35,587 nt of DNA, taken from NCBI GenBank assembly GCA_034659435.1, contig JAYEHJ010000091.1, positions 1 to 35,587 on the forward strand, in the 5' to 3' direction. This DNA comes from Patescibacteria group bacterium. Lineage in GTDB: Bacteria; Patescibacteriota; Patescibacteriia; Patescibacteriales; UBA12075. Under the pieces are notes generated by a model, which saw only the letters and a list, made by a program, of their open reading frames with translations, ran no database searches and was not told where the DNA came from. Position numbers and translations under genes: made by a program. Below, piece after piece: positions 4,835 through 34,089 of this stretch. How positions within the stretch are numbered: the first letter of the stretch is position 1; the number at the start of each line of letters is the position of its first letter.

Positions 4835-7687
4835 ATGCCCAAAAAACAAAAAAAATTAATGATTATAGATGGGAATGCTTTGATTCATCGGAGTTTTCAT
4901 GCCTTGCCGCCTACTATGACGACAAAAGACGGAACAGTTGTGAATGCTGTTTACGGTTTTATGAGTTTTTTAATTAAAGCCATGCGGGATTTGCGCCCGG
5001 AATACGTGGTTTTAACATTGGATAAAAAAGGGCCGACATTCAGGCATAAAAAGTTTAAAGAATATAAAGCAAAGCGGGTGAAAGCGCCGGATGAACTTTA
5101 CGCGCAAATTCCAATGGTAAAAAAACTGGCTATTGACTTTAATATCCCTGTTTTTGAAAAGGACGGTTTTGAGGCGGATGATTTAATTGGGACGATTTCG
5201 TCAGGAATCAGGAATCAAGAATCAGGAATCAAGGATTTAGAATGTATTATCGTTACTGGCGATAAGGATACTTTACAGCTGGTTAATAAAGAAACAAAGG
5301 TTTATTCTATGAGCCGCGGGTTAAGTGACTCTATATTGTATGATGAGGCGCTTGTGAAAGAAAAAATGGGTGTTAACGTCGGGCAGGTGGTTGATTATAA
5401 AGCGTTGAGCGGAGACGCGAGCGATAATATTCCGGGAGTGCCGGGAATTGGCGCCAAAACAGCGGTTGCGCTGTTAAAAGAGTTTGGTAATTTGGATAAT
5501 TTGTACAAACACGCAACTCACAGCTCACAACTCATAACTAAAAAAATTAAGCCTCGTATTTTGGATTTGCTTGTTGAGCATAAAAAAAGCGCTTATTTGT
5601 CGCGCGAATTGGCAACTATTAAATGTGATGTGAAAATTAAATTTAATTTGGAGGCTATGCGATTTTTTGATTTGGATAAAGATAAAATTGTTAAAGCCTT
5701 AAGCGAGCTTGAATTTAAATCTTTATTGCCACGGGTACAAAGTTTGTTTAACGAAGTCGGGTTGGATACAAAAGAAAAAAAACAGCAAGCAACTGAAGAT
5801 AAATTTAAGCGCAATAAGAATAGTTTTAAATATATTTTTGTTAATAATGAAAATAAGTTTAAAATTTTTTTGGCTGAATTAAAAAAACAAAAATACTTTA
5901 CTTTTGACACGGAAACTTCCAGTTTTGATCCGATTACATGTGATTTGCTGGGGGTTAGTTTTTCCTGGAAGAAAGGAGAAGCGCATTTTGTTCAGTTAAG
6001 AATTAAGAATGAAGAATTAAGAATTAAGGATTGTGGTCAAGGGTCATTGTTTGGAGAAACAAAAAAATTTTGTGATGATGACAAAGGAAAGATTTGGCTG
6101 GAAAAATTAAAGCCGATTTTTGCTGATGAAAAAATTAAAAAAACAGCGCATAATGCCAAGTTTGATGCGCGGGTTTTGAAAAATAAAGGCGTTGTTGTTA
6201 ATGGTTTGGATTTTGATACTATGATTGCTTCTTATCTTTTGAATCCGGGAACGCGCGGGCATGGCTTGGACGCGCTTGCTTTTACCGAGTTGGGGTTTGA
6301 AAAAATATCCAAGAATGATTTATTAGGAACAGGAAAAGACAAAAAAACTTTTAGCGAAGTGGAAATGGAAAAATTAAGCCTTTACTCGTGCGAAGACGCG
6401 GATTTTACCGAACGGCTAAGGCATGCTTTAAAGCCAAAATTAAAAAAAGAAAATCTGGAAGCGCTTTTTAAAACAATAGAGATGCCGTTGATTAGCGCGC
6501 TTTCATGCATGGAAGACACCGGCGTAAAAATTAACTCTGAATTTTTGTCAGAAATGAGCAGGAAAATGGCAAAAAAAATCAAAGCGCTTGAAAAAAAAAT
6601 TCATGATTTGGCAGGAGAAATTTTTAACATAAAATCAACAAAACAATTAAAATATATTTTATTTGAAAAAATGGAATTACCGACAGAAGCGATCAAAAAA
6701 ACCAAAACCGGTTTTTCAACAGGCGCGGATGAATTGGAAAAATTAAAAGAATATAGTCCGATAATTTCCTTAATTCAAGAATACAGAGAATTAAATAAAT
6801 TAGTCAGTACATATATTGACGCTTTACCCGCGCTTGTTAATGAAAAAACCAAACGAGTTCATACAAGCTATAATCAAACAATTACAGCTACCGGCAGATT
6901 GTCCTCCACAAAACCGAATTTACAGAATATTCCGGTTAAAACAGATTTGGGAAATGAAATCAGGAAAGCGTTTATCGCGGACAAGGGCTATAAATTATTG
7001 GCTTTGGACTATTCACAAATTGAATTAAGGCTTGCGGCGCATATGTCCGGCGACAAAAAGATGATTAAAGCGTTTAATAATGGGGCGGATATTCACAGCG
7101 CGACAGCGGCGGAAATAAATAATGTTTCTTTAGATGAAGTTAGCGCGAAGATGCGCCGAGAGGCAAAAGCTATAAATTTTGGCATTCTTTACGGGCAAGG
7201 CCCGCGCGGACTTTCCCGCGGAGTTAATATTCCTTACGCGCGAGCCAAGGATTTTATTGATAATTATTTTAAAGTCTATTCGGGAATAAAAACATATGTG
7301 AATGAAAAAATCGCGTTCGCGCGCGAATATGGCTACGCGGAAACAATGTATAAAAGAAAAAGATATTTGCCTGAAATCAATTCAAGTATTTTACAGGTAA
7401 AAAAAGGCGCCGAGCGCATGGCGATAAATACTCCGATACAAGGAACAGCCGCGGATATAATTAAAATCGCCATGATTGAAGTTATGGATAAAGTTTGCAG
7501 CAGCAAAGCAAAAATGCTTATGCAGGTTCATGATGAGTTGATTTTTGAAGTTAAAGATAGCGAGGTTAAAAAAGAAGCTGAGAAAATTAAAAAAATCATG
7601 GAAAATGTTGTTAAACTAGACGTTCCGATTATTGTTGATGTTAAGGCCGGGGAGAATTGGGGGGAGATGGGGTCAATTCTCAATTAA
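4835..7687 (+). CDS. polA: DNA polymerase I (5' nuclease + 3'-5' exonuclease + polymerase domains)
   Basis: 950 aa. 5' nuclease: EADDLIGT...TGDKD and GVPGIGAKTA. Exo motifs: FDTETSS, NAKFDARVL, YSCEDADFT. Pol motifs: DYSQIELR, RREAKAINFGILYG, QVHDEL. Confidence 0.95.
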   Translation: MPKKQKKLMIIDGNALIHRSFHALPPTMTTKDGTVVNAVYGFMSFLIKAMRDLRPEYVVLTLDKKGPTFRHKKFKEYKAKRVKAPDELYAQIPMVKKLAIDFNIPVFEKDGFEADDLIGTISSGIRNQESGIKDLECIIVTGDKDTLQLVNKETKVYSMSRGLSDSILYDEALVKEKMGVNVGQVVDYKALSGDASDNIPGVPGIGAKTAVALLKEFGNLDNLYKHATHSSQLITKKIKPRILDLLVEHKKSAYLSRELATIKCDVKIKFNLEAMRFFDLDKDKIVKALSELEFKSLLPRVQSLFNEVGLDTKEKKQQATEDKFKRNKNSFKYIFVNNENKFKIFLAELKKQKYFTFDTETSSFDPITCDLLGVSFSWKKGEAHFVQLRIKNEELRIKDCGQGSLFGETKKFCDDDKGKIWLEKLKPIFADEKIKKTAHNAKFDARVLKNKGVVVNGLDFDTMIASYLLNPGTRGHGLDALAFTELGFEKISKNDLLGTGKDKKTFSEVEMEKLSLYSCEDADFTERLRHALKPKLKKENLEALFKTIEMPLISALSCMEDTGVKINSEFLSEMSRKMAKKIKALEKKIHDLAGEIFNIKSTKQLKYILFEKMELPTEAIKKTKTGFSTGADELEKLKEYSPIISLIQEYRELNKLVSTYIDALPALVNEKTKRVHTSYNQTITATGRLSSTKPNLQNIPVKTDLGNEIRKAFIADKGYKLLALDYSQIELRLAAHMSGDKKMIKAFNNGADIHSATAAEINNVSLDEVSAKMRREAKAINFGILYGQGPRGLSRGVNIPYARAKDFIDNYFKVYSGIKTYVNEKIAFAREYGYAETMYKRKRYLPEINSSILQVKKGAERMAINTPIQGTAADIIKIAMIEVMDKVCSSKAKMLMQVHDELIFEVKDSEVKKEAEKIKKIMENVVKLDVPIIVDVKAGENWGEMGSILN
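5201..5242 (+). repeat. 7-nt periodic array, purine-rich flavour, in-frame in the polA 5' nuclease domain
   Basis: TCAGGAA TCAGGAA TCAAGAA TCAGGAA TCAAGGA TTTAGAA, translated SGIRNQESGIKDLE. Confidence 0.85.
5508..5542 (+). repeat. 7-nt periodic array, CA flavour, in-frame in polA
   Basis: AACACGC AACTCAC AGCTCAC AACTCAT AACTAAA, translated HATHSSQLITK. It shares a 15-nt identical core with the reverse complement of 9217-9244. Confidence 0.85.
5996..6037 (+). repeat. 7-nt periodic array, purine-rich flavour, in-frame in the polA 3'-5' exonuclease domain
   Basis: TTAAGAA TTAAGAA TGAAGAA TTAAGAA TTAAGGA TTGTGGT, translated LRIKNEELRIKDCG. Confidence 0.85.
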
Positions 7688-7749: not shown

Positions 7750-9144
7750 ATGTCAAGTCTTCAATATAAAAATTTAGAAAAATTAAAAAATACAAAGTGC
7801 ACCCCAAGGGCATTTCCTGCGGAGTACATTTTGGGTAAAAAAATCTGCATTCTTGGATTTGGGATTGAAAATCAGGCGCTGGTTGAATTTTTGTTGAACA
7901 AAGAAATAGATTGTGAAATAACTATTTGCGATGCGCGGGAAAATACCGTAGGAACGCGTCGTGGCGCGTTCCTACGCAACAAAAACATCAAATGGCGCTT
8001 AGGCAAAAATTATGACAAAAATCTTAATGAATATGATATTATTTTCCGCATTGCAGGGTATCCGCTATTTTCTCCTGAAATTAAAAAAGCTCAAGAAACA
8101 GGAGTTGAGATTTCCAGCCCGATAAAATTGTTTTTTGAAATATGTCCGACAAAAAATATTATCGGCGTAACAGGGACAAAAGGCAAAGGCACGACATCAT
8201 CTTTGATTTATGAAATTTTAAAAGCAGGCGGCAAGCAAGCTTTTTTTGGCGGGAATATTGGAATTCCTGTATTTAGTTTTTTTGAAAAAATTAAAAAAGA
8301 CGATTATGTTGTTTTGGAACTTTCCAGTTTTCAGCTTGAAAATTCGCGAATTAATCCAAAAGTAGCCGTAATTACAAATTTTTTTCGCGAACATTTAAAA
8401 CCTGCCGATCCGAATAATCCAAACCACCATAAAACCCTTGAAGATTATTGGCAGGCGAAATTTAATATTATACGTTCACAAACAAAAAATAATTTTGCGA
8501 TTATTAATAAAAATTTAAAATTAAAAGTTAAAGACAGTTTTAAAAATATTTTTAACAACAACAGCAAAAGAATTTATTTTAACAAATCCGATTTAAAATC
8601 ACAGTTGATCGGCGAGCATAACAAAGAGAATATCGCGGCGGCTTTTGAGGCTGCTAAAATTTTAAAAATCAATAAGAAACATACTATTAAGGCGATTGCG
8701 AATTTTAAAGGGCTTGAACATCGTTTGGAATTCGCGGGAAAGAAAAATTCAATTGATTTCTATAACGACAGTTTTGCCACTATTCCGGAATCAGCGGTTA
8801 CAGCCTTAAAATCATTTAACTGCCCGATAATTTTAATAGCCGGCGGCGCTGACAAGGGTAATGATTTTAAGGATATGGCAAAAATGATTAAGAAAAAAGT
8901 TAAATTTTTAATTTTGTTTACCGGCAAAGGCTCTGTTAGGCTGAAAAATCGTTTGCGCGAAATATCATTTTCCGATAATAAAATTGTTATGGCTGACACC
9001 ATGGATAAAGCAATAAAAATTGCCGTTAAAAATGCTGGCGCCGGAGACGCGGTTTTATTATCTCCCGGCTGCGCGAGTTTTGGAGTGTTTAAAAATTATA
9101 AAGAGCGCGGGCGTTTGTTTAAGGATGAGGTTGGCAAGATGTGA
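7750..9144 (+). CDS. murD: UDP-N-acetylmuramoyl-L-alanine--D-glutamate ligase
   Basis: Motifs GVTGTKGKGTTSS, GGNIG, ELSSFQLE, GLEHRLEF, SPGCASF. The start is uncertain. ATG 7750 is the ORF-track start. An in-frame TTG at 7831 is preceded by GGAG (7821-7824) and would give a canonical short N-terminus, MGKKICILGFG. Confidence 0.85.
   Translation: MSSLQYKNLEKLKNTKCTPRAFPAEYILGKKICILGFGIENQALVEFLLNKEIDCEITICDARENTVGTRRGAFLRNKNIKWRLGKNYDKNLNEYDIIFRIAGYPLFSPEIKKAQETGVEISSPIKLFFEICPTKNIIGVTGTKGKGTTSSLIYEILKAGGKQAFFGGNIGIPVFSFFEKIKKDDYVVLELSSFQLENSRINPKVAVITNFFREHLKPADPNNPNHHKTLEDYWQAKFNIIRSQTKNNFAIINKNLKLKVKDSFKNIFNNNSKRIYFNKSDLKSQLIGEHNKENIAAAFEAAKILKINKKHTIKAIANFKGLEHRLEFAGKKNSIDFYNDSFATIPESAVTALKSFNCPIILIAGGADKGNDFKDMAKMIKKKVKFLILFTGKGSVRLKNRLREISFSDNKIVMADTMDKAIKIAVKNAGAGDAVLLSPGCASFGVFKNYKERGRLFKDEVGKM
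7802..7824. repeat. family C copy (2 nt shorter) in the 5' end or leader of murD
   Basis: CCCCAAGGGCATTTCCTGCGGAG followed by TA. If ATG 7750 is used, it translates as TPRAFPAE. Confidence 0.7.
7947..7976. repeat. perfect 12-bp stem / 6-nt loop palindrome inside the murD CDS
   Basis: CGTAGGAACGCG-TCGTGG-CGCGTTCCTACG. It is 30 nt (10 codons) and encodes part of TVGTRRGAFLR. Confidence 0.85.
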
Positions 9145-10643: not shown

Positions 10644-11810
10644 TTAGTTTATATTTTGCAATTTTGATGCTATTTCATAAATTATGCCAATGGCAAATAA
10701 TATCATCAACAAATAAACAAGCGCGTTTGGCGGCTTGGCCGTGAACATCGGCATTTTGTTTTTTTTCTTTTTTATTTTTAAAAATACGGTAAGCATTACA
10801 ATCGCGCAGAAACCGCCGCCAACAGCGCCTATAAAGCTTATAACTTCGATTAAGTCGGTAATTCCCGCCAAATATAAAATATAAGGCGTAAAAACCGCCA
10901 AAGCCCAAGAAAGCGTTTTGTTAATTTTAAAATCCCACCAAAGGGTTTCCTTGACTGATTCCGCCACTCCGATTATTGAAGTCATTATGCTGAATAATCC
11001 GAAAACCAGAACTAAAGTAATAACGCCGTTAGCAAGAATCTTCTGAACGCCGACAAGCGCGTCAGGAGTGGTGTCAGCGCCTGAAATTCCGACTATTACA
11101 AATACAAATAAAGTTAAAATCAATGAAGACAAAATCATGCTTGTCCTGATAACGCTTTTAAACAAAACCGCGTCTTTTTTTACCAGCCGTCCGACTATGG
11201 GCAAAGAGCCGTTCCCGTCCAAAGACATTAGCATGGCGCCGAACGGAAGCAAAGTATTTTTCCAATCAATTATTAGATAATTTTCCGCTTCAATCGCGTT
11301 CCAGCCTTTGTAGGCCATTATGCCAATAACAAAAAAAAGTAACGCCGACATATACAGCTCCGCTTTTGAAATCGCTCTTATGCCGCGGAATACTACAATC
11401 GCCGCTAAAATTACAACAATGCTTGCGTACAAAATTAAATTTTCTCCAAAAAACCGGCCCAGCAATTGCCTTAAAAAAATACTGGAAATAATAATATAAG
11501 CCAGTAAAGCGCCGTAATTTCCTATTAACTTAGCTAGAAAAACCGCCCATTTTCCTTTTAATCCCAAATATTTTTCAACATAACCGGGCAGGCGGTGAAA
11601 AGAGCCGTTGATCACGATCATATTGGCGTAAACCAAATGCAGCAAATATTGGGCCAGCCCCAGAACTACGAGTAAAACCGCGAATGCCAGCCAGCCGGCT
11701 CTAACCGTCAAATACGGCAGGCCAAACATGCCGACTCCGATAATATAACCGACCATCACCGCTATAGCCTGAAAATATTTTTTGTTTTTTTTATGTTTTT
11801 TTTTGAACAT
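10644..11810 (-). CDS. amino-acid permease (multi-pass membrane transporter, Trp/Tyr-permease-like)
   Basis: About 11 hydrophobic segments. N-terminal AVMVGYIIGVGMFGLPY resembles amino-acid transporter family N-termini. ATG 11810 is chosen because the longer ORF (to 11849) would overlap the upstream gene's stop at 11827. Confidence 0.6.
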   Translation of the reverse strand: MFKKKHKKNKKYFQAIAVMVGYIIGVGMFGLPYLTVRAGWLAFAVLLVVLGLAQYLLHLVYANMIVINGSFHRLPGYVEKYLGLKGKWAVFLAKLIGNYGALLAYIIISSIFLRQLLGRFFGENLILYASIVVILAAIVVFRGIRAISKAELYMSALLFFVIGIMAYKGWNAIEAENYLIIDWKNTLLPFGAMLMSLDGNGSLPIVGRLVKKDAVLFKSVIRTSMILSSLILTLFVFVIVGISGADTTPDALVGVQKILANGVITLVLVFGLFSIMTSIIGVAESVKETLWWDFKINKTLSWALAVFTPYILYLAGITDLIEVISFIGAVGGGFCAIVMLTVFLKIKKKKNKMPMFTAKPPNALVYLLMILFAIGIIYEIASKLQNIN

Positions 11811-12483: not shown

Positions 12484-14202
12484 TTACTTTTCTTCAGCAA
12501 CCCTAAACACTTCGTCAACCGAAGTGATGCCGCTAGCCGCTTTTAAAAGGCCGTCTTGCGCCATGGAAATGGTGCCTTTTTCCGCGGCCGCGCCGCGTAT
12601 GTCATATTCGCTGATATTTCCTGATAAAATTAATTTTTCCATTTGCGCGTCAACAATTATTATTTCATATATTCCGATGCGGCCTTTGTAGCCGATCCCC
12701 TGGCAAGCATCACAGCCATCGCCTTGATAAAATTTTAAATTGCTAAAATCTATATTTGCTTGTTCTTCTTTGGGAAGTTTTTTTAATATTTCAAGCGCTT
12801 TTTTTAATTTTTCATCTTCAAGCTTAATTTCTTTTTTGCAATTTTCGCATATTTTTCTAACCAAGCGCTGGCCAATCATCGCGTTTAGAGCCGGGGCGAG
12901 TAGAAAAGGCTTTGTTCCCATTGACAAAAAGCGCGGCACTGTTCCGGCGGCGTCATTGGTATGGATTGTTGACAATACTAAATGGCCGGTTAAGGACGCT
13001 TGAATGGCGATTTCAGCGGTTTCTAAATCACGGATTTCCCCCACCATAATTATATCTGGATCTTGGCGCACTATTGATCTCAGTCCTTGAGCGAAAGTAT
13101 ATTTTTCGCTTATTTGCGATTGATTCACGCCTTCCAGCTGGTATTCAATCGGATCTTCAATGGTAATGATTTTTGTTTCCTGATTATTCAGTTTTTTTAA
13201 AATCGCGTAAAGAGTCGTGGTTTTGCCGCTGCCTGTCGGTCCGGTGGTAATAATCATGCCGTTCGGCCTTCCAACTTCTTTTTTTAATTGCTGAAAAGCG
13301 CGATCCCTAATCCCCAAATCTTCAAAACCCAGTCCGACTGAGCTTGATTTAAGAATACGCATTACCACGCTCTCGCCGAAATTTGTCGGCAAAAACGAAG
13401 CGCGGATATCAATTCTTTCTTTTGAGGTAATTAATGACAATCTCCCGTCCTGCGGCTTGTCGGTAATATTTATTTTTACTTTGGCTAAAACTTTTAAGCG
13501 GGAAATTATTTTTTTCCATAATTCTTTGTCAACCGCGGCAGCGTCATGCAAAACGCCGTCTACGCGAAAACGCACTTTTATTCCTTCTTCTTCTGCTTCA
13601 ATATGAACATCAGATGAATCCAGTTTTATTGAAGCGGACATAATCATAGTAACAATATCGGTAACTTTCGCCTTGTCAATTTCCGATTGCAGATCGCGAA
13701 AGCTTGAAAATTTTTCGCTGAATTTATTAAGATCCGCTTCGGTCAGCTCCACGCCGCGCGATACTTTTCTCACTTTTGGAATAGCCTTATAAAACCCCAA
13801 AGCGTAATCAAGGCTATTTTGCGAAATCAAATAAACCTCGCCATCACAATAAAGTTCCGTACATAGTTTTTGCAATACATCTATTACCTCCTTGTTTTGC
13901 GGAGTAATAGCGCCTAAACGAATTTTTTTGCCGTCATAAACAAAACAAACAGCCTTGATTTTTCCGGCATTTTCTTCTTTGATTAACGATAACGCTTCCG
14001 GACTGATTGGAAAACCAAACAAATTAATGTAAGACACTCCCATGCCGGCGGCTTCCGTCTCGGCTTTTCTTTCCATTTCCTTTATTTTAATTTGCTTTTG
14101 CCTGGATTGAAATTTCGCCTGAGCGCTTTCATCATCAACAACATTATTACTGTTTTTTGAAGCCGCAATCAGATCTTCAATTGATTGAATTTTTTGAGTC
14201 AT
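12484..14202 (-). CDS. type II/IV secretion-family ATPase (PilB/GspE)
   Basis: Walker A GPTGSGKTTT, Walker B IIMVGEIRD, His box STIHTND, and a C-terminal CxxC...CxxC zinc motif. The true start is taken as ATG 14202 (MTQKIQS...). The 62 extra N-terminal codons in the ORF track translate a repeat element. Confidence 0.9.
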   Translation of the reverse strand: MTQKIQSIEDLIAASKNSNNVVDDESAQAKFQSRQKQIKIKEMERKAETEAAGMGVSYINLFGFPISPEALSLIKEENAGKIKAVCFVYDGKKIRLGAITPQNKEVIDVLQKLCTELYCDGEVYLISQNSLDYALGFYKAIPKVRKVSRGVELTEADLNKFSEKFSSFRDLQSEIDKAKVTDIVTMIMSASIKLDSSDVHIEAEEEGIKVRFRVDGVLHDAAAVDKELWKKIISRLKVLAKVKINITDKPQDGRLSLITSKERIDIRASFLPTNFGESVVMRILKSSSVGLGFEDLGIRDRAFQQLKKEVGRPNGMIITTGPTGSGKTTTLYAILKKLNNQETKIITIEDPIEYQLEGVNQSQISEKYTFAQGLRSIVRQDPDIIMVGEIRDLETAEIAIQASLTGHLVLSTIHTNDAAGTVPRFLSMGTKPFLLAPALNAMIGQRLVRKICENCKKEIKLEDEKLKKALEILKKLPKEEQANIDFSNLKFYQGDGCDACQGIGYKGRIGIYEIIIVDAQMEKLILSGNISEYDIRGAAAEKGTISMAQDGLLKAASGITSVDEVFRVAEEK

Positions 14203-14215
14203 ATTTATATTTAAA

Positions 14216-14402
14216 GGGACTGCCGCCGAATGCCAGTTTTGGCATAAATTTTCAAATTTTGAGTAAACTTTTCTTAAAAAAATTTTGCTTATGTGATAAT
14301 ATACGCCCCGTAGGAAGTGCCCTTGGGGTAGGCCAAATTTTTTTAAGATAAATTTGCCAAAATTTGGGAATTTAGGGCAAACTGGCATTCGGCGACAGTC
14401 CC
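14216..14402. mobile_element. 187-bp MITE-like element, family A (terminal inverted repeats GGGACTGCCGCCGAATGCCAGTTTTGGCA / CAAACTGGCATTCGGCGACAGTCCC)
   Basis: The inverted termini were read directly. ATTTAAA lies on both flanks. The interior is non-coding and carries a nested family-C hairpin at 14304-14328. The element lies in the leader of the PilB/GspE gene. Confidence 0.8.
14304..14328. mobile_element. family C 25-nt hairpin micro-element (inverted) flanked by TA/TA, nested in the family A MITE
   Basis: TA[CGCCCCGTAGGAAGTGCCCTTGGGG]TA. Confidence 0.75.
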
Positions 14403-14463
14403 ATTTAAAATAAAGAAGACAAAAAGCCTTCTTTATTTAATATTTATAAATTTAATATTTATT

Positions 14464-20266: not shown

Positions 20267-21679
20267 ATGTCAGAATTATCAAGTGCTATCAAACATGTTT
20301 GCGAGGAAAAAGGCTTGGATATGGACGCGGTAATATCTACCATTGAATACGCTTTGGCTGCCGCTTATCGCAAGGATTTTGGGCAAAAAAATCAAAATAT
20401 TATAGTTGAATTTGATACTGAAAAAGGGACTTCAAAAGTTTATGATGTTAAAACCGTGGTTGAGGATATTTTGGAAGAAGATGAACAGGAAAAAGAAAAA
20501 ATAAAGGATGAAAAAGTAAAAAGGGGCAAAGCTCCTGATGTTAAAAAAACGGATGGTAAAAAAGATGAAAAATCGGCTGAAGATAAAAATAAAAAAGAAG
20601 AAGATAAAAAGGACGAATCCGCCACCGCTAAAAAGTCGGCGGACTTGCCCGCCATAGCTTCAGCGGCGGAAGGCGAGGAAAGAAAATTTAATCCTAAAAC
20701 TGAAATTCAGATTAGTGATGCCAAAATGCTTAAAAAAACCGCGAAAATTGATGATGAAATTAAAACCAAGCTTGAAGTGCCGGATGCTTACGGACGCATG
20801 GCAGCGCAAACCGCCAAGCAGGTAATTATTCAAAGATTGCGGGAGGCAGAGCGGGAAATGATTTTTAATGATTTTAAAGACAAAGAACACGAGGTTGTTA
20901 GCGGCGTTATTCAAAGGCGCGAAGGCCGGATTATTTTGGTTGATTTGGGCAAGTCAGTCGGCGTTATTCCGCCGGATGAGCAAATTATCGGCGAGAAATA
21001 TAATACAGGCGACAGGGTTAAAGTTTATGTTAAAGAAGTTACTTTAAAGCCTAGGGGGCCGGAAATTATTCTTTCCCGCACTTCGGAAGAAATTTTGAAA
21101 AAAATATTTTATTTGGAAATTCCTGAAATTTCCAATGGCTTAATTGAGTTCAAAAGCGTGGCGCGCGAGGCAGGGTCGAGATCAAAGGTTGCCGTTTGGA
21201 CTGATTCGGAAAATGTTGATCCAATAGGTTCCTGCGTCGGCCAGCGCGGCTCTCGAATTCAAACTATTATCAATGAGCTTGGCGGGGAAAAAGTTGATAT
21301 CATTGAATATGATGACGATCTTAGCAGATATATTTCCAATGCTTTGTCTCCGGCAAAAATCGGTAAAATTGATATGAATGAAGAGACAAAAAAAGCCACA
21401 GTTACCGTTCCCAATGATCAGCTGTCTTTGGCAATCGGCAAAAGCGGACAAAACGCGCGTCTGGCAGCCAAGCTGACCGGTTGGAAAATTGATATTGTGG
21501 AAGATAAAGAGAATCAGGAATCAGGAATTAAGAATCAAGGAGAAGCTTCGGAAGATACCAAAAATGTTGATGATGTTGAAAATGCCGAAGAGAAAAACGA
21601 TGAACAGAATAAAGAGAAAATATCAAAAGATTCTGAAAATGTTAAAGCAGGCGAAGAAAAAGATGATGAAAAAAAATAA
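20267..21679 (+). CDS. nusA: transcription termination/antitermination factor NusA (with charged insertion and acidic tail)
   Basis: NTD, then RMAAQTAKQVIIQRLREAERE, S1 domain, and KH1/KH2 (GSCVGQRGSRIQ, AIGKSGQNARLAAKLTGWKIDI). Confidence 0.9.
   Translation: MSELSSAIKHVCEEKGLDMDAVISTIEYALAAAYRKDFGQKNQNIIVEFDTEKGTSKVYDVKTVVEDILEEDEQEKEKIKDEKVKRGKAPDVKKTDGKKDEKSAEDKNKKEEDKKDESATAKKSADLPAIASAAEGEERKFNPKTEIQISDAKMLKKTAKIDDEIKTKLEVPDAYGRMAAQTAKQVIIQRLREAEREMIFNDFKDKEHEVVSGVIQRREGRIILVDLGKSVGVIPPDEQIIGEKYNTGDRVKVYVKEVTLKPRGPEIILSRTSEEILKKIFYLEIPEISNGLIEFKSVAREAGSRSKVAVWTDSENVDPIGSCVGQRGSRIQTIINELGGEKVDIIEYDDDLSRYISNALSPAKIGKIDMNEETKKATVTVPNDQLSLAIGKSGQNARLAAKLTGWKIDIVEDKENQESGIKNQGEASEDTKNVDDVENAEEKNDEQNKEKISKDSENVKAGEEKDDEKK
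21514..21541 (+). repeat. 7-nt periodic array, purine-rich flavour, in-frame in the nusA C-terminal tail
   Basis: TCAGGAA TCAGGAA TTAAGAA TCAAGGA, translated QESGIKNQG. Confidence 0.85.
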
Positions 21680-24654: not shown

Positions 24655-24666
24655 CAATTAAATTAT

Positions 24667-24759
24667 TTTATAGTCAAGGAATTTGAATACCCCAAGGGCA
24701 CTTCCTTCGGGGCGTATTCCCGACTACTGTTAGTGCCCCTTGCGGGTATAACTTGTAAA
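24667..24759 (-). repeat. family B two-hairpin element (~66-nt core) carrying a nested 27-nt family-C insertion
   Basis: Aligns end to end with the reverse complement of 27723-27786, except for the insert at 24690-24716. Lies between tRNA-Ala and tRNA-Leu and is co-oriented with them. Confidence 0.8.
24690..24714. mobile_element. family C 25-nt hairpin micro-element flanked by TA/TA
   Basis: TA[CCCCAAGGGCACTTCCTTCGGGGCG]TA. The paralogous site in the other family B copy reads ...AAATA|TTCCC with a single TA. Confidence 0.8.
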
Positions 24760-24810
24760 ATTAGTGCGTGCACCGCGTAGTTCTTAAGCGGCAAAGCCGC
24801 AAGAGCGAAG

Positions 24811-27722: not shown

Positions 27723-27786
27723 TTTACAAGTTATGCCCAAAGGGCACTAACAGTAGTCGGGAATATTTAAATTCCTTGACTATAAA
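27723..27786 (+). repeat. family B two-hairpin element (uninterrupted copy) in the 5' UTR of the 27807 gene
   Basis: TTTACAAGTTATGCCCAAAGGGCACTAACAGTAGTCGGGAATATTTAAATTCCTTGACTATAAA. Hairpins GCCC-AAA-GGGC and AGTC.GGAAT-loop-ATTCC..GACT. Confidence 0.8.
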
Positions 27787-27806
27787 TTATTAACTAATAA
27801 AAAACT

Positions 27807-28940
27807 ATGAAAAAAATTTTAGTTATTGTTCTTGTTTGCGCGTTTGTTTTTTCAGTATCTTTGGTTAGCGAAATTTCGGCAAGCACCGCAGACAGTTTGC
27901 CGGCCGGCACGGTAATCAAAGGAGAAGGGCTTTCCACTCTTTATTACATCGGAGAAGACGGAAAGCGCTATGTTTTTCCAAACTCAAACATTTTTTTCTC
28001 TTGGTATGACGATTTTTCAGAAGTAGTGGAAGTTTCCTTGGAAACTTTGTATGAATATCCCTTAGGCGGCAATGCACGTTATAAACCCGGAGCTCTTTTA
28101 GTAAAAATTCAAACCGACCCGAAAGTTTACGCGGTTGGACATAACGGTAAACTTCATTGGATTAAAACCGAGCCAATCGCCAGAGCGCTTTATGGAAATA
28201 ATTGGAATAAATTAGTTGACGATGTGCCGGATTCGTTTTTTACAAATTATGAAGTAGGCGGCGAAGTTGACGGAGAAGATGATTTTGACCCAACATCAAC
28301 AGAAGAAGAAACACCAAGCATAAGCCATAATCGCGGTTTTAAAGCTAAAGTTGCCGCGCGTATTAAAAATAGAAATGAAAGAATTTGCGATCAGTTGGAT
28401 AGCGCCGTAAATCGTTTGCAAAAACGGCTTGTTCGCTGGGAAATAGCGCTCCCAGACATAGGAAAAAATTTAATGAAGATATGCTATGGCTTAGGCAGTG
28501 ATGGCAAAATGACCGGCAACGCGTTGCGTTCCGTAAAAAAAGCTACTCTTTGCCACGAAGGAAAAACTATCAGCGTAGACCTTTCAGCTATCGGCGCCCA
28601 TTTAAAGCAGGGCGGCTTTATGGGGGCATGCGAAGATGATAGTGCTGAACCGGATACAACAGCCCCTAAAATTACGGATGATCCGCACGTAGCCACGAGC
28701 AGCAGAACAGCGGTCATTACATGGACAACTGATGAATTATCAGACAGCAAAGTAATTTATGCCGAGGGGTCATTTGAAACAGCAAGCCCAAACGAGGCAA
28801 CAAGCACCGATCTCGTCCTGGAACACAGTGTAGAATTAATCAACCTTTCCGTTTCAACCACTTATTCTTACAAAGTTGAATCCAAAGACGCGGCAGGCAA
28901 CCTTGCGACAAGCAGTGAAGCAACTTTCGTGATTGAATAA
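27807..28940 (+). CDS. secreted hypothetical protein with C-terminal Fn3/Ig-like domain
   Basis: Signal peptide MKKILVIVLVCAFVFSVSLVSEISA. C-terminal beta-rich module TAVITWTTDELSDSKVIY...YSYKVESKDAAGN. Confidence 0.6.
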   Translation: MKKILVIVLVCAFVFSVSLVSEISASTADSLPAGTVIKGEGLSTLYYIGEDGKRYVFPNSNIFFSWYDDFSEVVEVSLETLYEYPLGGNARYKPGALLVKIQTDPKVYAVGHNGKLHWIKTEPIARALYGNNWNKLVDDVPDSFFTNYEVGGEVDGEDDFDPTSTEEETPSISHNRGFKAKVAARIKNRNERICDQLDSAVNRLQKRLVRWEIALPDIGKNLMKICYGLGSDGKMTGNALRSVKKATLCHEGKTISVDLSAIGAHLKQGGFMGACEDDSAEPDTTAPKITDDPHVATSSRTAVITWTTDELSDSKVIYAEGSFETASPNEATSTDLVLEHSVELINLSVSTTYSYKVESKDAAGNLATSSEATFVIE

Positions 28941-29362: not shown

Positions 29363-30697
29363 CTAAAAGGGACTGTCGCCAAATGCCAAAACTGGCATTC
29401 GGCGACAGTCCCTTATTTTTCGCAAATTTTTTAAATCTTCCTCTGATTGCTTGATATATTCTTTGTCCCTTTTCACAATATCGGGGTTGACTTGCAAAGA
29501 CATTTTATTCAGACCTAATAACTCCATTCCGCTAAGCGATCTTACTCTTGACAGGGCGACATAGCCCATACCATAATCAAAAGCGTCCCGCAAATCAACA
29601 ATCATCTCATCAAGGCTCATGCCCTGGCTTTTATGAACCGTAATCGCCCATGCCAGCCGCAAAGGCACTTGGCTTATTTTGGCAACCGTTTCATTGCCCT
29701 CCTCAACCGCCCACTCTCTTGGATAAGCGATAATTTGCCTATCGTCATTAGTTTTAACAATCGGATAATTATCAAATTCGCTAAAGCCGATAATTTTCCC
29801 AAGCGTGCCATTGACATAATGGGCAAAGCCGGATTCGCTGAATTTATTTTTTACAAACATTACTACCGCCCCTTTTTTTAAAACAAGCCTTGACGGCGCC
29901 ATGCAATTTTTTATTAAAAAATCAACCAATTGCTTTCGTCCTTTTTTATAAGATGATTTCATTTGATAGACTGTTTCGCTTTGTTTTATTTTTGCCAATT
30001 CAAAATCGTTTATGGCGTTAACGTCCTTGTTATTGGTGAACAATTTTGTCGGAGTAATATTTCCGCAAACCGGCCGGTTAAGCCTTGATTTTAATGTCAT
30101 CAAAGTATCTTTATCTATCTTGTTATTTCTGATGCTATTTAAAACTTTGATAAATTTTTTATCGCTATGCCTGTGCTGTTCATTTAAATAGCAGACTTTT
30201 AAACAAGATTCATTCCAAACGTTTGCCTTAAAAGCGTATTCATTATTTTCTTCTTTGCCGTTGACCGGCGGTAATTGAAAAAAATCACCGCAAAAAATAA
30301 CCTGAATTCCGCCAAAAGGCGCGATGCTGTTTTTGAAAGACATGCAAATATTGTTAACCAAGTCCAGCCTGTCGGCATCAAGCATTGATATCTCATCAAT
30401 AATCAATACTTTTGTTTTAAGCATCCTGTTCTTTAGATATCTTTTATTTAAAATGGTTTTAAATTCCGCTTTGCTTAATTGCTTGGCGATTCCCATCCCG
30501 CACCAGGAATGAATTGTTATGCCGCCGATATGCGTAGCCGCGATGCCTGTTGAAGCCGTAACTGCCGCGCTAATATGCTTTGACTTTAAATAGCTGATAT
30601 ATTTATTTAAAAGAAAAGTCTTCCCGCTTCCGGCAGGACCTGTCAAAAAAACATTAGCGCCCAGTTTTAATAATTGAAAAGCTTCTTCTTGTTTCAT
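29363..30697 (-). CDS. SF1B Pif1/RecD-like ATP-dependent DNA helicase
   Basis: Walker A GPAGSGKTF, Walker B LIIDEISM, C-terminal ITVHKSQGMSLD and YVALSRV motifs. The last 16 codons and the stop are encoded by a palindromic repeat. Confidence 0.8.
   Translation of the reverse strand: MKQEEAFQLLKLGANVFLTGPAGSGKTFLLNKYISYLKSKHISAAVTASTGIAATHIGGITIHSWCGMGIAKQLSKAEFKTILNKRYLKNRMLKTKVLIIDEISMLDADRLDLVNNICMSFKNSIAPFGGIQVIFCGDFFQLPPVNGKEENNEYAFKANVWNESCLKVCYLNEQHRHSDKKFIKVLNSIRNNKIDKDTLMTLKSRLNRPVCGNITPTKLFTNNKDVNAINDFELAKIKQSETVYQMKSSYKKGRKQLVDFLIKNCMAPSRLVLKKGAVVMFVKNKFSESGFAHYVNGTLGKIIGFSEFDNYPIVKTNDDRQIIAYPREWAVEEGNETVAKISQVPLRLAWAITVHKSQGMSLDEMIVDLRDAFDYGMGYVALSRVRSLSGMELLGLNKMSLQVNPDIVKRDKEYIKQSEEDLKNLRKIRDCRRMPVLAFGDSPF
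29367..29414. repeat. family A short form overlapping the 3' end of the helicase CDS
   Basis: AAGGGACTGTCGCCAAATGCC-AAAACT-GGCATTCGGCGACAGTCCCTT, with one A/C mismatch in the stem. Confidence 0.9.
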
Positions 30698-31143: not shown

Positions 31144-34089
31144 ATGCCAAATTCTAAAAATAATAATTTTATTAAAATTAAAGGCGCGCGCGTTCATAAT
31201 TTAAAAAATATTAATGTGGATATTCCGAGGAATAAATTTACGGTTATTACCGGACTTTCCGGCTCGGGAAAATCTTCACTTGCTTTTGACACGATTTACG
31301 CCGAAGGCCAAAGGCGATATGTTGAATCATTATCAGCCTACGCGCGGCAATTTGTCGGTCTTATGGACAAGCCTGATGTGGATTTAATTGAGGGACTCTC
31401 GCCGGCAATATCAATTGACCAAAAAACCGCGCCGCGCAATCCGCGCTCAACAGTCGGAACGGTTACGGAAATATATGACTATATGCGCCTTTTATACGCC
31501 CGTATCGGCATTCCGCACTGCCCTGATTGCGGCAATAAAATTCGTCCGTACACGGTTGATGAAATAGTTGAGCAAATCAATAAAAATTTTTTAGATCAAG
31601 AAACAATTATTCTCGCGCCAATTGTCAAAGATAAAAAAGGCGAGCATAAAAATATTCTTGACGGAATCGCCAAAGCCGGCTTTAGCCGCCTGCGTTTTGA
31701 CAAAGTCATTTACACTTTGGAAGAAATAGAAGATATGGAAGTTAACAAGCAAAAAAAACATACGGTTGAAATTATAATTGACCGCGTAAAAATCAAAAAA
31801 AATAAAGAAGACCAAGCGCGCCTAACAGAAGCGATTGAAAAAGCGCTTGATTTATCCAACGGACTTATCACGGTTTTACCAGCAATTCAACAATTTAACA
31901 ATGAAACAATAAAAAAGTCAAATAAAAATACAAAACGCGCCCCAAGGGCATTTCCCGCGGGGCGCCCTTTGGATAAAAAAACAAACGAAATCACTTATTC
32001 AAAATTATTCGCCTGCCCTGACTGCGGAATCAGCCTTGCTGAATTGGAGCCGCGCAGCTTTTCTTTTAATTCGCCGCACGGAGCCTGTGAAGAATGTTCG
32101 GGAATAGGAACTAAGCTGGAAATTGACCCGAAATTAATTGTTAATCCAAATTTAACAATCGCGCAGGGCGGAATCAAATCATGGATGCACGGAAGCGCCG
32201 GGCAAACATGGCTAATGCGTATTTTAGGAACCGTTGCCGTTAAAAACGGTTTTGATTTGAATACGCCAATCAAAGATTTAAGCAAAAAACAGCTTGACAT
32301 TGTCTTCTACGGCACCGGCGATAAAAATTACAATGTTGATTACGACAGCGATCGCTTTTCAGGAGAGCTAAACACCGGATTTGAAGGAGTAATTCCCAAT
32401 TTAGAAAAAAGATATAATCGCACCGAATCGGATTGGGTTAGAAAAGATATTGAACAATATATGCGCGTTTTAATATGCCCTAAATGCAAAGGCCAAAGGC
32501 TTAAAAAAGAAGTTTTAGCCGTAAAAATTCTTGGCCGTTCCATTCATGATGTCAGCATCAAAACAATCAATGAAGCAAAAAGATTTTTTTGCTCGCTTGA
32601 AACCGCGAAAGAGTTAAGCGCTCGCGATAAAAAAATAGCAAATCAAATAATTAAGGAAATCCGCACGCGGCTTGATTTTCTTCTTAATGTCGGCTTGAAT
32701 TATTTAACCCTGAACCGCGCCGCCAATACTCTTTCCGGCGGCGAAGCTCAGCGCATACGGCTGGCAAACCAAATCGGCACATCATTGGTAGGTGTTTTAT
32801 ACATTTTAGATGAACCGTCAATCGGCTTGCATCAAAGAGATAATAAAAAATTAATTTCCACTATTAAAAAATTAAGGGATATCGGTAATACAGTAATCGT
32901 GGTTGAGCATGACGAGGAAACCATGATGTCCGCTGATTGGATTATTGATGTCGGACCCGGCGCGGGCGCTAAAGGCGGAGAGATTATCGCGGCCGGAACC
33001 CCCGCGCGGATTAAAAAATCAGCCAAATCTTTAACAGGACAATATCTTGCCAATAAAAAATCAATTCCCACTCCAAGCAAATACCGCTTTGGCCTTAAAC
33101 AATCAATAAAAATCATCGGCGCGTCAGAACATAATTTAAAAAATATTGACGCAAAATTTCCTTTGGGAAAATTCATAGCCATTACCGGAGTATCAGGATC
33201 CGGCAAATCCACCCTTATGACTGATATTTTGGCAAAAGCCTTAAACAAAAAATTTTATCGCGCCAAAGCCGAAGCAGGCGCGCATAAACGAATTGAAGGG
33301 CTTGGCTTTATTAATAAAGTAATCAACATTGATCAATCGCCGATAGGACGCACTCCTCGTTCCAACCCCGCCACATATACCGGCGCATTCACTCCAATCC
33401 GCGACTTATTCGCGCAATTGCCGGAAGCGAAAATCCGCGGCTACAAAGCCGGGCGTTTTTCTTTTAATGTCGTTGGCGGCCGCTGCGAAGCCTGCTCCGG
33501 CGACGGCATGGTAAAAATTGAAATGCAATTTCTGCCGGATGTTTACGTGGAATGCGAAGTCTGCCGCGGGCAAAGATACAATAAAGAGGCTTTAGATATT
33601 TATTATAAAGAAAAAAATATTTCCGATGTTTTAAACATGACGATTGAAGAGGCAATGAAATTTTTTAAAAATATTCCGGCAATCCATATAAAAATGAAAA
33701 CCTTGCATGAAGTCGGCTTGGGCTATATAAAACTAGGGCAATCCGCAACCACTCTTTCCGGCGGAGAAGCCCAGCGCGTTAAGCTCGCAACGGAGCTTTC
33801 CCGCCGCGCGACAGGCAAAACTTTGTACATTTTGGACGAACCGACAACCGGCTTGCATTTTGAAGATATTAAAAAACTTTTAAGCGTCCTAAACAAATTG
33901 GTTGACAAAGGAAACACTGTTTTAATTATTGAGCATAATCTGGATGTAATTAAATCCGTTGACCATATCATTGACTTGGGTCCGGAAGGAGGCGGCAAAG
34001 GCGGAAAAATCGTAGCGCAGGGCACGCCTAGAGAAGTGGCAAAAACCAATACGCATACAGGGAAATTTTTGAAGAAAGTGTTGAAATAA
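31144..34089 (+). CDS. uvrA: excinuclease ABC subunit A
   Basis: 981 aa. Two ABC modules ([22 protein letters not shown]; LSGGEAQR twice) and zinc modules CPDCG...CEEC and CEAC...CEVC. Confidence 0.95.
31940..31964. repeat. family C copy in-frame inside uvrA
   Basis: CCCCAAGGGCATTTCCCGCGGGGCG, translated as part of [14 protein letters not shown]. Confidence 0.8.

Follow-up and report, generated by a model that had tools for sequence, protein, structure and literature searches.

Rickettsia palindromic elements (RPEs) are confined to Rickettsia, and RPE-1, about 100–150 bp long, was reportedly found by Ogata et al. in 2000 to lie in frame in many genes of that genus, essential ones included, where the repeats were assumed to be translated and to be tolerated in surface regions. 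The small dispersed repeats (SDRs) of heterocystous cyanobacteria, attributed to Elhai et al. in 2008, are said to be 21–27-nt elements, some of them palindromic, that show presence/absence differences and are nested in one another. IS200/IS605 elements and the repetitive extragenic palindromes (REPs) with their REP-associated tyrosine transposases (RAYTs), all of the HUH Y1 type, use a DNA hairpin as their recognition site. They insert on the 3′ side of a short fixed motif, with no duplication of the target, and arrays in tandem can form because the element is similar to the target at its 3′ end. Here we analyse a Patescibacteria contig of 35,587 nt (hereafter the window), in which the uvrA gene carries, in frame, a copy of a hairpin repeat that an initial annotation of this DNA had named family C. 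Its unit of 27 nt and its occurrence across phyla set it apart from RPE-1 in size and host. It resembles the SDRs, as these are described, in size, presence/absence and nesting, but phylum and sequences differ, and in-frame copies in conserved proteins are our focus here. With IS200/IS605 and REP/RAYT it has tandem arrays (of 27-nt units) in common; this is a mechanistic analogy only, and the motif 5′ of family C is YA or YGYA, not GTAG.

The initial annotation had likened the uvrA copy to an RPE. As an analogy this is apt, but a closer precedent is provided by small REP hairpins, which the sections of Di Nocera, De Gregorio & Rocco 2013 (BMC Genomics 14:522; PMC3733652) drawn on here already place in uvrA and uvrB. 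The REPs of those sections are GC-rich hairpins of 20–40 bp, dispersed and mostly intergenic, some of which lie in frame in genes and add 7–30 residues, in what the authors take to be linkers or loops. Repair genes are conspicuous hosts, among them those for the excinuclease A subunit of Opitutus terrae and Thioalkalivibrio and uvrB of R. conorii, and RPE-4 and RPE-6 are equated with small CGTC REPs. Family C is like these intragenic GTAG/CGTC REPs in size class, GC-rich hairpin, in-frame copies and repair-gene hosts. It is a REP in the broad sense, being an imperfect palindromic hairpin of 20–40 bp that is dispersed, multi-copy and mostly intergenic near gene ends, and its copies in uvrA and murD show the hallmark of RPEs, in-frame insertion in conserved genes with the open reading frame (ORF) kept. 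The terminal tag of the GTAG/CGTC super-family, however, is lacking: family C is untagged, with YA as its 5′ flank and CG-YA/CN as its 3′ flank. As far as those sections go, it also differs from the published REPs in its nesting within a mini-hairpin, in its Patescibacteria host, in that no RAYT gene was seen in the window or among copy-flanking genes, and in its site within UvrA, the published uvrA cases being in UvrAs of 1889–1995 residues at other positions. In-frame hairpin insertion is already a known phenomenon, through REPs (including those in uvrA) and RPEs; the Patescibacteria host and this element appear to be new. A literature search found no Patescibacteria paper on in-frame palindromic repeats. 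The annotation likewise knew of no equivalent described for genomes of the Candidate Phyla Radiation (CPR); the family itself extends beyond this one CPR genome and occurs in many phyla. In-frame hairpin 'decoration' of essential proteins, seen before in Rickettsia RPEs and in REPs of Proteobacteria, Verrucomicrobia and others, is hereby extended to the CPR.

The uvrA copy, CCCCAAGGGCATTTCCCGCGGGGCG, lies at 31940–31964 of the window on the forward strand and is part of the uvrA ORF, as annotated. Allowing up to three mismatches, this 25-mer has three matches in the window, where 0.00 are expected. For the 15-mer CCCAAGGGCAYTTCC, at most two mismatches being allowed, there are four (0.08 expected), at 7803 (+), 14313 (−), 24691 (+) and 31941 (+). 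The repeat searches place the three other cores at 7802–7826 (+) in murD and, between genes, at 14304–14328 (−) and 24690–24714 (+), so that two of the four window copies are genic and two intergenic. The window has a GC content of 37%, and its genes have common housekeeping roles (polA-murD-murI, ftsH, nusA, tig, rny and others). The 25-nt core, CCCCAAGGGCAYTTCC-NNN-GGGGCG, forms a hairpin with stems CCCC/GGGG and AAGG/CCTT and a 6-nt loop, GCAYTT, and pairing is retained across loop variants. Together with two flanking bases it makes a unit of 27 nt, or nine codons; in all six frames the canonical 27-mer is free of stop codons. At gathering and E-value thresholds, Rfam gave no family match at the window copies or in 19 loci with copies.

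The ORF that carries the insert (31144..34089, +; 981 aa) is intact and is the only long ORF of its region. Pfam identifies UvrA_inter at residues 137–245, UvrA_DNA-bind at 328–438 and ABC_tran, and phmmer matches the protein to the solved UvrAs of the PDB (2r6f/3uwx, 9gxk, 3zqj and 3pih) at E=0, over the full length for 2r6f/3uwx/9gxk. The cysteine pairs 126/129, 291/294, 315/318, 445/448, 781/784 and 804/807 are invariant or nearly so, and the Walker and signature residues likewise fall in invariant or nearly invariant columns. This is a complete class I UvrA, with two ABC modules, three zinc modules and the UvrB-interaction and DNA-binding insertion domains. Its nearest named homologue, at 81% identity, is from Candidatus Falkowbacteria, and the same 90% cluster has a member labelled Candidatus Parcubacteria.

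Within this protein the repeat falls in a hypervariable linker (aa 245–284; 31876..31995, +) that follows the last strand of the UvrB-interaction domain and precedes C291/C294, the second cysteine pair of zinc module 1. Three lines of evidence delimit it. The phmmer alignment to solved UvrAs splits at query 244/281, with 36 residues here against 5–6 in G. stearothermophilus and T. maritima. From V244 to Y285 there are 40 aa, against a range of 9–59 aa (median 17) in the 120 closest homologues, which are from Patescibacteria; the annotation had given about nine residues for E. coli, which is about right. In the AlphaFold2 model the predicted local distance difference test (pLDDT) is below 50 for residues 251–279, with block means of 36, 29 and 33 over 251–280, while the flanking strands (241–246 and 283–286) lie in blocks with means of about 80. 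The linker is likely disordered, judging from this model, and the insert lies in a segment of variable length modelled at a pLDDT of about 30.

Comparison with the DNA of relatives resolved the insert into a 45-nt composite (31930..31974, +) that begins at codon phase 0 and encodes 15 aa. Its outer part is an 18-nt mini-hairpin, split into the halves ACAAAACG (31930–31937) and CCCTTTGGAT (31965–31974); the inner 27-nt family-C unit, CGCCCCAAGGGCATTTCCCGCGGGGCG (31938..31964, +), is nested in the loop and read as (R)APRAFPAGR. The nine-residue block of the annotation corresponds to this inserted unit of nine codons; the repeat-derived peptide as a whole is longer, at 15 aa, and includes the apparently older mini-hairpin. 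GC content rises from 0.42 in the gene to 0.64 in the composite and 0.78 in the inner unit, and in this copy the flanks lengthen the stem to GCGCCCC/GGGGCGC. The RNA fold at the composite has an energy of −23.3 kcal/mol (z = −2.8 sense, −4.1 antisense).

We read uvrA as DNA in four relatives (L197, L001, L002 and L004; 86–89% nucleotide identity to the window gene), and the 27-nt unit is absent from all four. In L197 and L004 the site is a plain A-rich linker coding for Lys, Asn and Ser, with neither mini-hairpin nor 27-nt unit, and the linker of L001 is shorter than theirs. L002 has solely the 18-nt mini-hairpin, ACAAAGTGCCCTTGGGGT, encoding TKCPWG. P0241, which belongs to the 90% cluster mentioned above, lacks the peptide too, at the protein level. 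The refuting test that the annotation had set beforehand, an alignment of orthologues, does not refute its reading: the uvrA genes of the four relatives are without the peptide, and the uvrA copy itself is identical to the intergenic copies at 22 of 25 nucleotides. Next to the insert, at 31975–31981, 30 nt of the L002 linker (CCGCAAAACAAGAAAAGTCCGATAAAAAAA), flanked by TAAAAAAAC direct repeats, are missing from the window gene. The gap resembles a deletion by slippage, which would indicate fast turnover of the linker.

The dN/dS of the ORF against its relatives is 0.05–0.10, and against three of them it is 0.05–0.08 both upstream (codons 1–244) and downstream (285–981) of the insert, which points to strong purifying selection on both halves. 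An assembly artefact is unlikely because a separate assembly (L198; Logan, run SRR26901925) reproduces the insert identically, with one mismatch in 4799 nt. Since both halves are needed in one polypeptide for zinc module 1, read-through translation is the only simple reading, and from ORF integrity and selection we infer that the ribosome reads through the insert.

The murD gene (7750..9144, +), recognised by its Pfam Mur ligase domains, carries a second 45-nt composite at 7792..7836 (+), similar to that of uvrA. It occupies codons 15–29 and encodes the peptide TKCTPRAFPAEYILG; its inner 27-nt unit, ACCCCAAGGGCATTTCCTGCGGAGTAC (7801–7827, +), was delimited by DNA comparison with orthologues. 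Architecture and codon phase are as in uvrA, and the copy is read TPRAFPAE, in the PRAFPA frame that the annotation had reported for both genes. We considered whether this copy might lie in a 5′ untranslated region, with a start at TTG 7831 after GGAG, and Pfam MurD_N does begin at aa 30. The conserved N-terminus upstream rules this out: in 60 MurD orthologues the motif M..L..KL.N (MSSLQ..KL.N-KKICILG) is kept upstream of the insert, directly before KKICILGFG. Because orthologues keep this motif, ATG 7750 is the murD start, and the copy is truly coding.

Relatives supply a series of states at the murD site. In L194, whose MurD is 77% identical in amino acids, ...CAAAAC and AAAAAAATC stand without an insert between them; in L193 the 18-nt mini-hairpin occurs alone (ACAAAGTACCCTTTGGGT, encoding TKYPLG); and the window has 18 plus 27 nt. 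In L195 (400–470) the 18-nt mini-hairpin carries a different 18-nt hairpin, CCTTTGCGCCTAAAGGGCA, in its loop. Positions 31924–31981 of uvrA match the murD site over 58 nt at 83% identity, in the same phase and with a common derived T (GGGCATTTCC). The two composites appear to be each other's closest relatives, and the shared PRAFPA frame would therefore be explained by descent or conversion rather than by independent selection. Between KL.N and KKICILG the MurD N-terminus is a second hot spot in its own right, with NISPRLIRLGR there in several orthologues (P0123, P0125, P0126 and P0151).

The intergenic copies show the 27-nt unit both present and absent in otherwise matching DNA. A promoter/terminator cassette of about 75 nt, ...GTTATGCCCAAAGGGCACTAAC AGTAGTCGGGAATATTYAAATTCC TTGACT..., occurs twice in the window. 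The cassette at 24659–24760 (+), between tRNA-Ala and tRNA-Leu, is filled: it reads ...GAATA, CCCCAAGGGCACTTCCTTCGGGGCGTA, TTCCCGAC, with the copy at 24688..24716 as TA + 25 nt + TA, and the extra 27 nt lie in the loop of a GGAAT...ATTCC hairpin. Its counterpart at 27724..27795 (−) is empty, reading ...AAATA and then TTCCCGAC, exactly 27 nt fewer. Two more empty cassettes are found in L194 (14040–14110 and 15900–15960), and a filled one (640–760) in L009, a Parcubacteria metagenome-assembled genome (MAG), at a non-orthologous locus. The other intergenic window copy (14302..14330, −), again TA + 25 nt + TA, lies upstream of a T2SSE ATPase gene, at the centre of nested palindromes spanning 14193–14425: family-A arms (GGGACTGYCGCCGAATGCCAG; 14193–14239 and 14379–14425) enclose AT-rich arms (14247–14291 and 14329–14373), which enclose the family-C hairpin. 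A mechanically called ORF, 12484..14388, spans these palindromes; its Pfam T2SSE match begins at aa 238, and the gene probably starts at ATG 14202, after the palindromes. All resolvable insertion points in the window are hairpin loops or palindrome centres.

Contigs from sediment show the same alternation in different host DNA. There a repeat of at least 90 nt (...CTGAAAAACCACAACGCCTTG TA TATGGGCC...) can have the family-C hairpin as its core, and contig L140 has both an empty site (3491; ...GCCTTG TA TATGGGCC...) and a filled one (1580; ...GTCTTT TA, CCCC...GGGGCGTA, TATGGGTC...). At this one TA we found three states: the 27-nt unit, an empty site (also in L074, at 2705) and another 27-nt hairpin, TTATCCCGCTGATTTTTAGCGGGGGTA, which occupies the site in L064 (4897) and L164. 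Because it is present or absent between paralogous repeats, both in the window and in the sediment contigs, the 27-nt unit appears to behave as a discrete insertion module, and the third state suggests a class of interchangeable 27-nt hairpin modules. Such clean empty and filled sites in unrelated lineages offer a tractable entry to the question of how the smallest bacterial repeats move.

How widely does the family occur? A scan with the 16-mer CCCCAAGGGCAYTTCC, using one genome per species, matched at least 119 DNA stretches (loci L005–L123). Among the 134 matches listed with enough flank, 92 share features outside the search pattern, namely a variable loop of 3–4 nt (TGC, TTC, GTT and others) followed by GGG(G)CG; about 25 are a long-loop variant, and about 15 are chance matches in coding DNA without these features. 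In 90 of the 92 hairpin-type copies CA or TA stands directly 5′ (most often as CGCA, TGCA or CGTA), and at the 3′ end GGG(G)CG is followed by CA, CG, TA or CC. None of the 92 has a GTAG or CGTC terminal tag. By our estimate about 550 matches to the 16-mer would be expected by chance in the whole collection, and it is the features outside the search pattern that rule out chance as the account of the cross-phylum matches. Hosts among the matches listed include Thiodiazotropha, Thiomicrorhabdus, Sulfurovum, Sulfurimonas, Desulfobacterales, Ruminococcus/Faecousia and Parcubacteria, as well as alphaproteobacterial MAGs and one Asgard-labelled MAG. By sequence comparison, then, family C spans Proteobacteria, Campylobacterota, Desulfobacterota, Firmicutes and others, its hairpin nearly the same base for base in very distant taxa. 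A scan of metagenomes for the TA-flanked form added 65 loci (L128–L192), mostly sediment contigs of about 50% GC. Literature searches by sequence strings turned up no description of the hairpin, just irrelevant human and mouse primers.

In other genomes the hairpin-type copies are nearly all intergenic or at gene boundaries, beside genes such as alaS, parB and those for a thiolase, a short-chain dehydrogenase and a porin, and many contigs stop at a copy. Between co-directional genes, 40 copies are in the sense orientation and 19 are not, a mild 2:1 bias. Tandem 27-nt arrays occur in L005 (3090), L065 (6125/6152) and L187. In the last, a 143-kb metagenome contig, two tandem units (626–683) lie within a lipoprotein gene (lipobox LAGC, Pfam Gly-zipper 2TM) and are read in frame, antisense, as YAPQEVPLG-YAPQEVPLG in a linker directly after the lipobox. 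No transposase was found among the Pfam matches of the 23 window ORFs of at least 100 aa or beside multi-copy loci elsewhere, and a search for carriage by phages gave one match in 2.9 million viral contigs. We also considered a 2-bp target-site duplication as a general rule and rejected it, since the flanking dinucleotides match in just 22 of the 92 copies across phyla. Three copies in the window are flanked by TA/TA, TA/TA and CA/CA, the one in L140 by TA/TA and the uvrA copy by CG/CC; taken together, these data would fit a 27-nt unit ending in CGYA and inserted 3′ of YA as well as they would a 2-bp duplication.

The UvrA linker has received other sequences of this kind. Long linkers in Patescibacteria UvrAs have a Gly/Ala/Arg/Pro fraction of 0.32, against 0.17 in short ones, and in four uvrA genes that we read as DNA (L124–L127) the linker is built from GC-rich hairpins or tandem units that have no relation to family C, with a GC content of 0.52–0.67 against 0.43–0.52 for the genes. 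These are four repeats of 30 nt encoding PRSLGEGGLA in L124 (10221–10382), CCCCCCCTTATTAAGAGGGGG and CCCCTCCTTTACAAGGAGGGG in L125 (2950–3057), the hairpin TCCCCTCCTTACTAAGGAGGGG in L126 (7066–7200) and another GC-rich hairpin or unit in L127 (6860–7015). Searches with 16-mers and blastn for further copies of these hairpins found them for L126 alone, within its 14-kb contig: two are intergenic (206–227 and 6318–6340) and one lies within a Memo/AMMECR1 gene (10878–10911). The UvrA linker and the MurD N-terminus thus appear to be two hot spots for many unrelated hairpins.

Our preferred explanation, which we regard as probable, is that a REP-like hairpin module of 27 nt entered the loop of a pre-existing mini-hairpin in the disordered linker, a neutral event that left the frame intact. 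The starting state would be an older 18-nt mini-hairpin within A-rich, Lys/Asn-coding linker DNA, with the same nesting at the MurD N-terminus, and the very small REP-like hairpin would then enter its loop. The reading frame would survive because 18 and 27 nt each make a whole number of codons and the 27-mer is free of stops; the ribosome would read on and extend a linker tolerant of almost any length by 15 residues, of which the inner unit supplies nine. Such an insertion would be neutral or nearly so, with selection filtering just frame and site. The difference in uvrA presumably arose by insertion rather than deletion. As for its spread, a trans-acting enzyme that recognises hairpins or single-stranded DNA (for example an HUH/Y1, RAYT-like transposase acting 3′ of YA) may be responsible, by analogy with known systems, or else gene conversion between hairpins, and the repeat may be 'selfish' in character. 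Several observations weigh against this explanation. The uvrA copy is without the canonical YA flanks (CG...CC instead), and its loop differs from those of the intergenic copies. No transposase was found in the window or adjoining copies elsewhere, and with matching flanks in 22 of 92 copies a target-site duplication is unsupported. The relatives form a star-like set at 86–89% identity, so that insertion in the window lineage and exact loss of 27 nt in the others cannot be polarised rigorously. Translation of the insert is deduced from ORF integrity and selection. Finally, the common derived T and the 58-nt similarity of uvrA and murD seem to fit conversion or duplication as well as two independent insertions.

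This last point leads to the main rival for the origin of the uvrA copy, gene conversion between murD and uvrA. In its full form, which we consider unlikely, the 27 nt spread between the two mini-hairpins by conversion, or when a cleaved hairpin was repaired by recombination through the 18-nt arms, or else the palindrome grew in place by template switching; relatives with 18 nt only would have lost the inner hairpin by slippage, hairpins being known substrates of slippage deletions. In favour of this rival, the identity of the two sites extends into the host arms and includes the derived T and the codon phase. The inner unit, moreover, has a left arm that is reverse-complementary to the right half of the host (GTGCCCTTGGGG), making the composite one long palindrome. 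But the unique part of the unit, TTCC-NNN-GGGGCG, also occurs in other phyla and in intergenic copies without the 18-nt arms, and because these copies have it, template switching at the site cannot have made it. Empty and filled pairs are also found in quite different host sequences, and the genic copies are 83% alike, so any conversion was not recent. Retention of the insert for a function seems still less probable, whether as a stable mRNA hairpin (−23 kcal/mol) at which ribosomes pause or which shields the transcript, as a terminator on the antisense strand, or as a peptide that tunes the UvrA–UvrB contact. The fold is strong on both strands, the site abuts UvrA_inter, the copies across loci have their mild sense bias, and the authors of PMC3733652, in the sections drawn on here, speculated that the presence of REPs in repair genes is no accident. 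Against this, close relatives manage without the insert, and homologues have unrelated sequences of any length in the same place, in a linker modelled at very low confidence. A terminator-like site was called on the minus strand at 31950–31938; we do not retain it as an antisense intrinsic terminator, since the five such sites in uvrA are no excess over the 5.5 found in shuffled sequences. It is very improbable, finally, that the hairpin goes untranslated, whether by removal from the mRNA or by ribosomal bypass, or that uvrA is a pseudogene or an assembly artefact. The hairpin is stable, and translational bypass of a hairpin is known from gene 60 of phage T4. Here, however, the frame is kept without a stop codon, there is no take-off/landing codon pair, and a hairpin of 25–45 nt fits no intron class, in keeping with the lack of Rfam matches. 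Strong purifying selection acts on both halves, which zinc module 1 requires in one chain, and L198 is identical.

Insertion of the 27-nt module remains our reading of the uvrA site, and the interpretation given in the initial annotation is supported overall. It offers a concrete account of odd Pro/Gly/Arg-rich peptides and length jumps in CPR proteins, and such inserts are best masked in CPR alignments, phylogenies and structure predictions. More tentatively, and with clear reservations, YA-CCCCAAGGGCAYTTCC-NNN-GGG(G)CG could be an undescribed, untagged REP-like micro-element common to many phyla (Patescibacteria, Gammaproteobacteria, Campylobacterota, Desulfobacterota and Clostridia) that enters hairpin loops as a 27-nt module and builds 'Russian-doll' palindromes. 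In AT-rich CPR genomes it would then be a general source of linker length variation, with the UvrA linker and the MurD N-terminus as recurrent landing pads.

Other repeats of the window are noted here for their own sake. The cassette of about 75 nt consists of two hairpins followed by promoter hexamers (TTGACT-N17-TAAT-like), and precedes both tRNA-Leu and ORF 27807..28940. Found again in other Parcubacteria, it may act as a portable module of terminator and promoter. At 29363–29416 a family-A palindrome, GGGACTGTCGCCGAATGCCAGTTTTGGCATTTGGCGACAGTCCC, adjoins the stop of a Pif1-like helicase ORF (29363..30697, −) and encodes the 16 residues at its C-terminus (RDCRRMPVLAFGDSPF), perhaps a further case of a hairpin repeat that is read as protein. 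A purine-rich motif of 31 nt, GAATCAGGAATCAAGAATCAGGAATCAAGGA, built of 7-nt GAATCAR units, lies in polA (5191–5249 and 6000–6030) and nusA (21511–21541). It is in frame in both genes, in polA as SGIRNQESGIKD and RIKNEELRIKD and in nusA as ENQESGIKNQG, and may be either low-complexity coding sequence or another short dispersed repeat.

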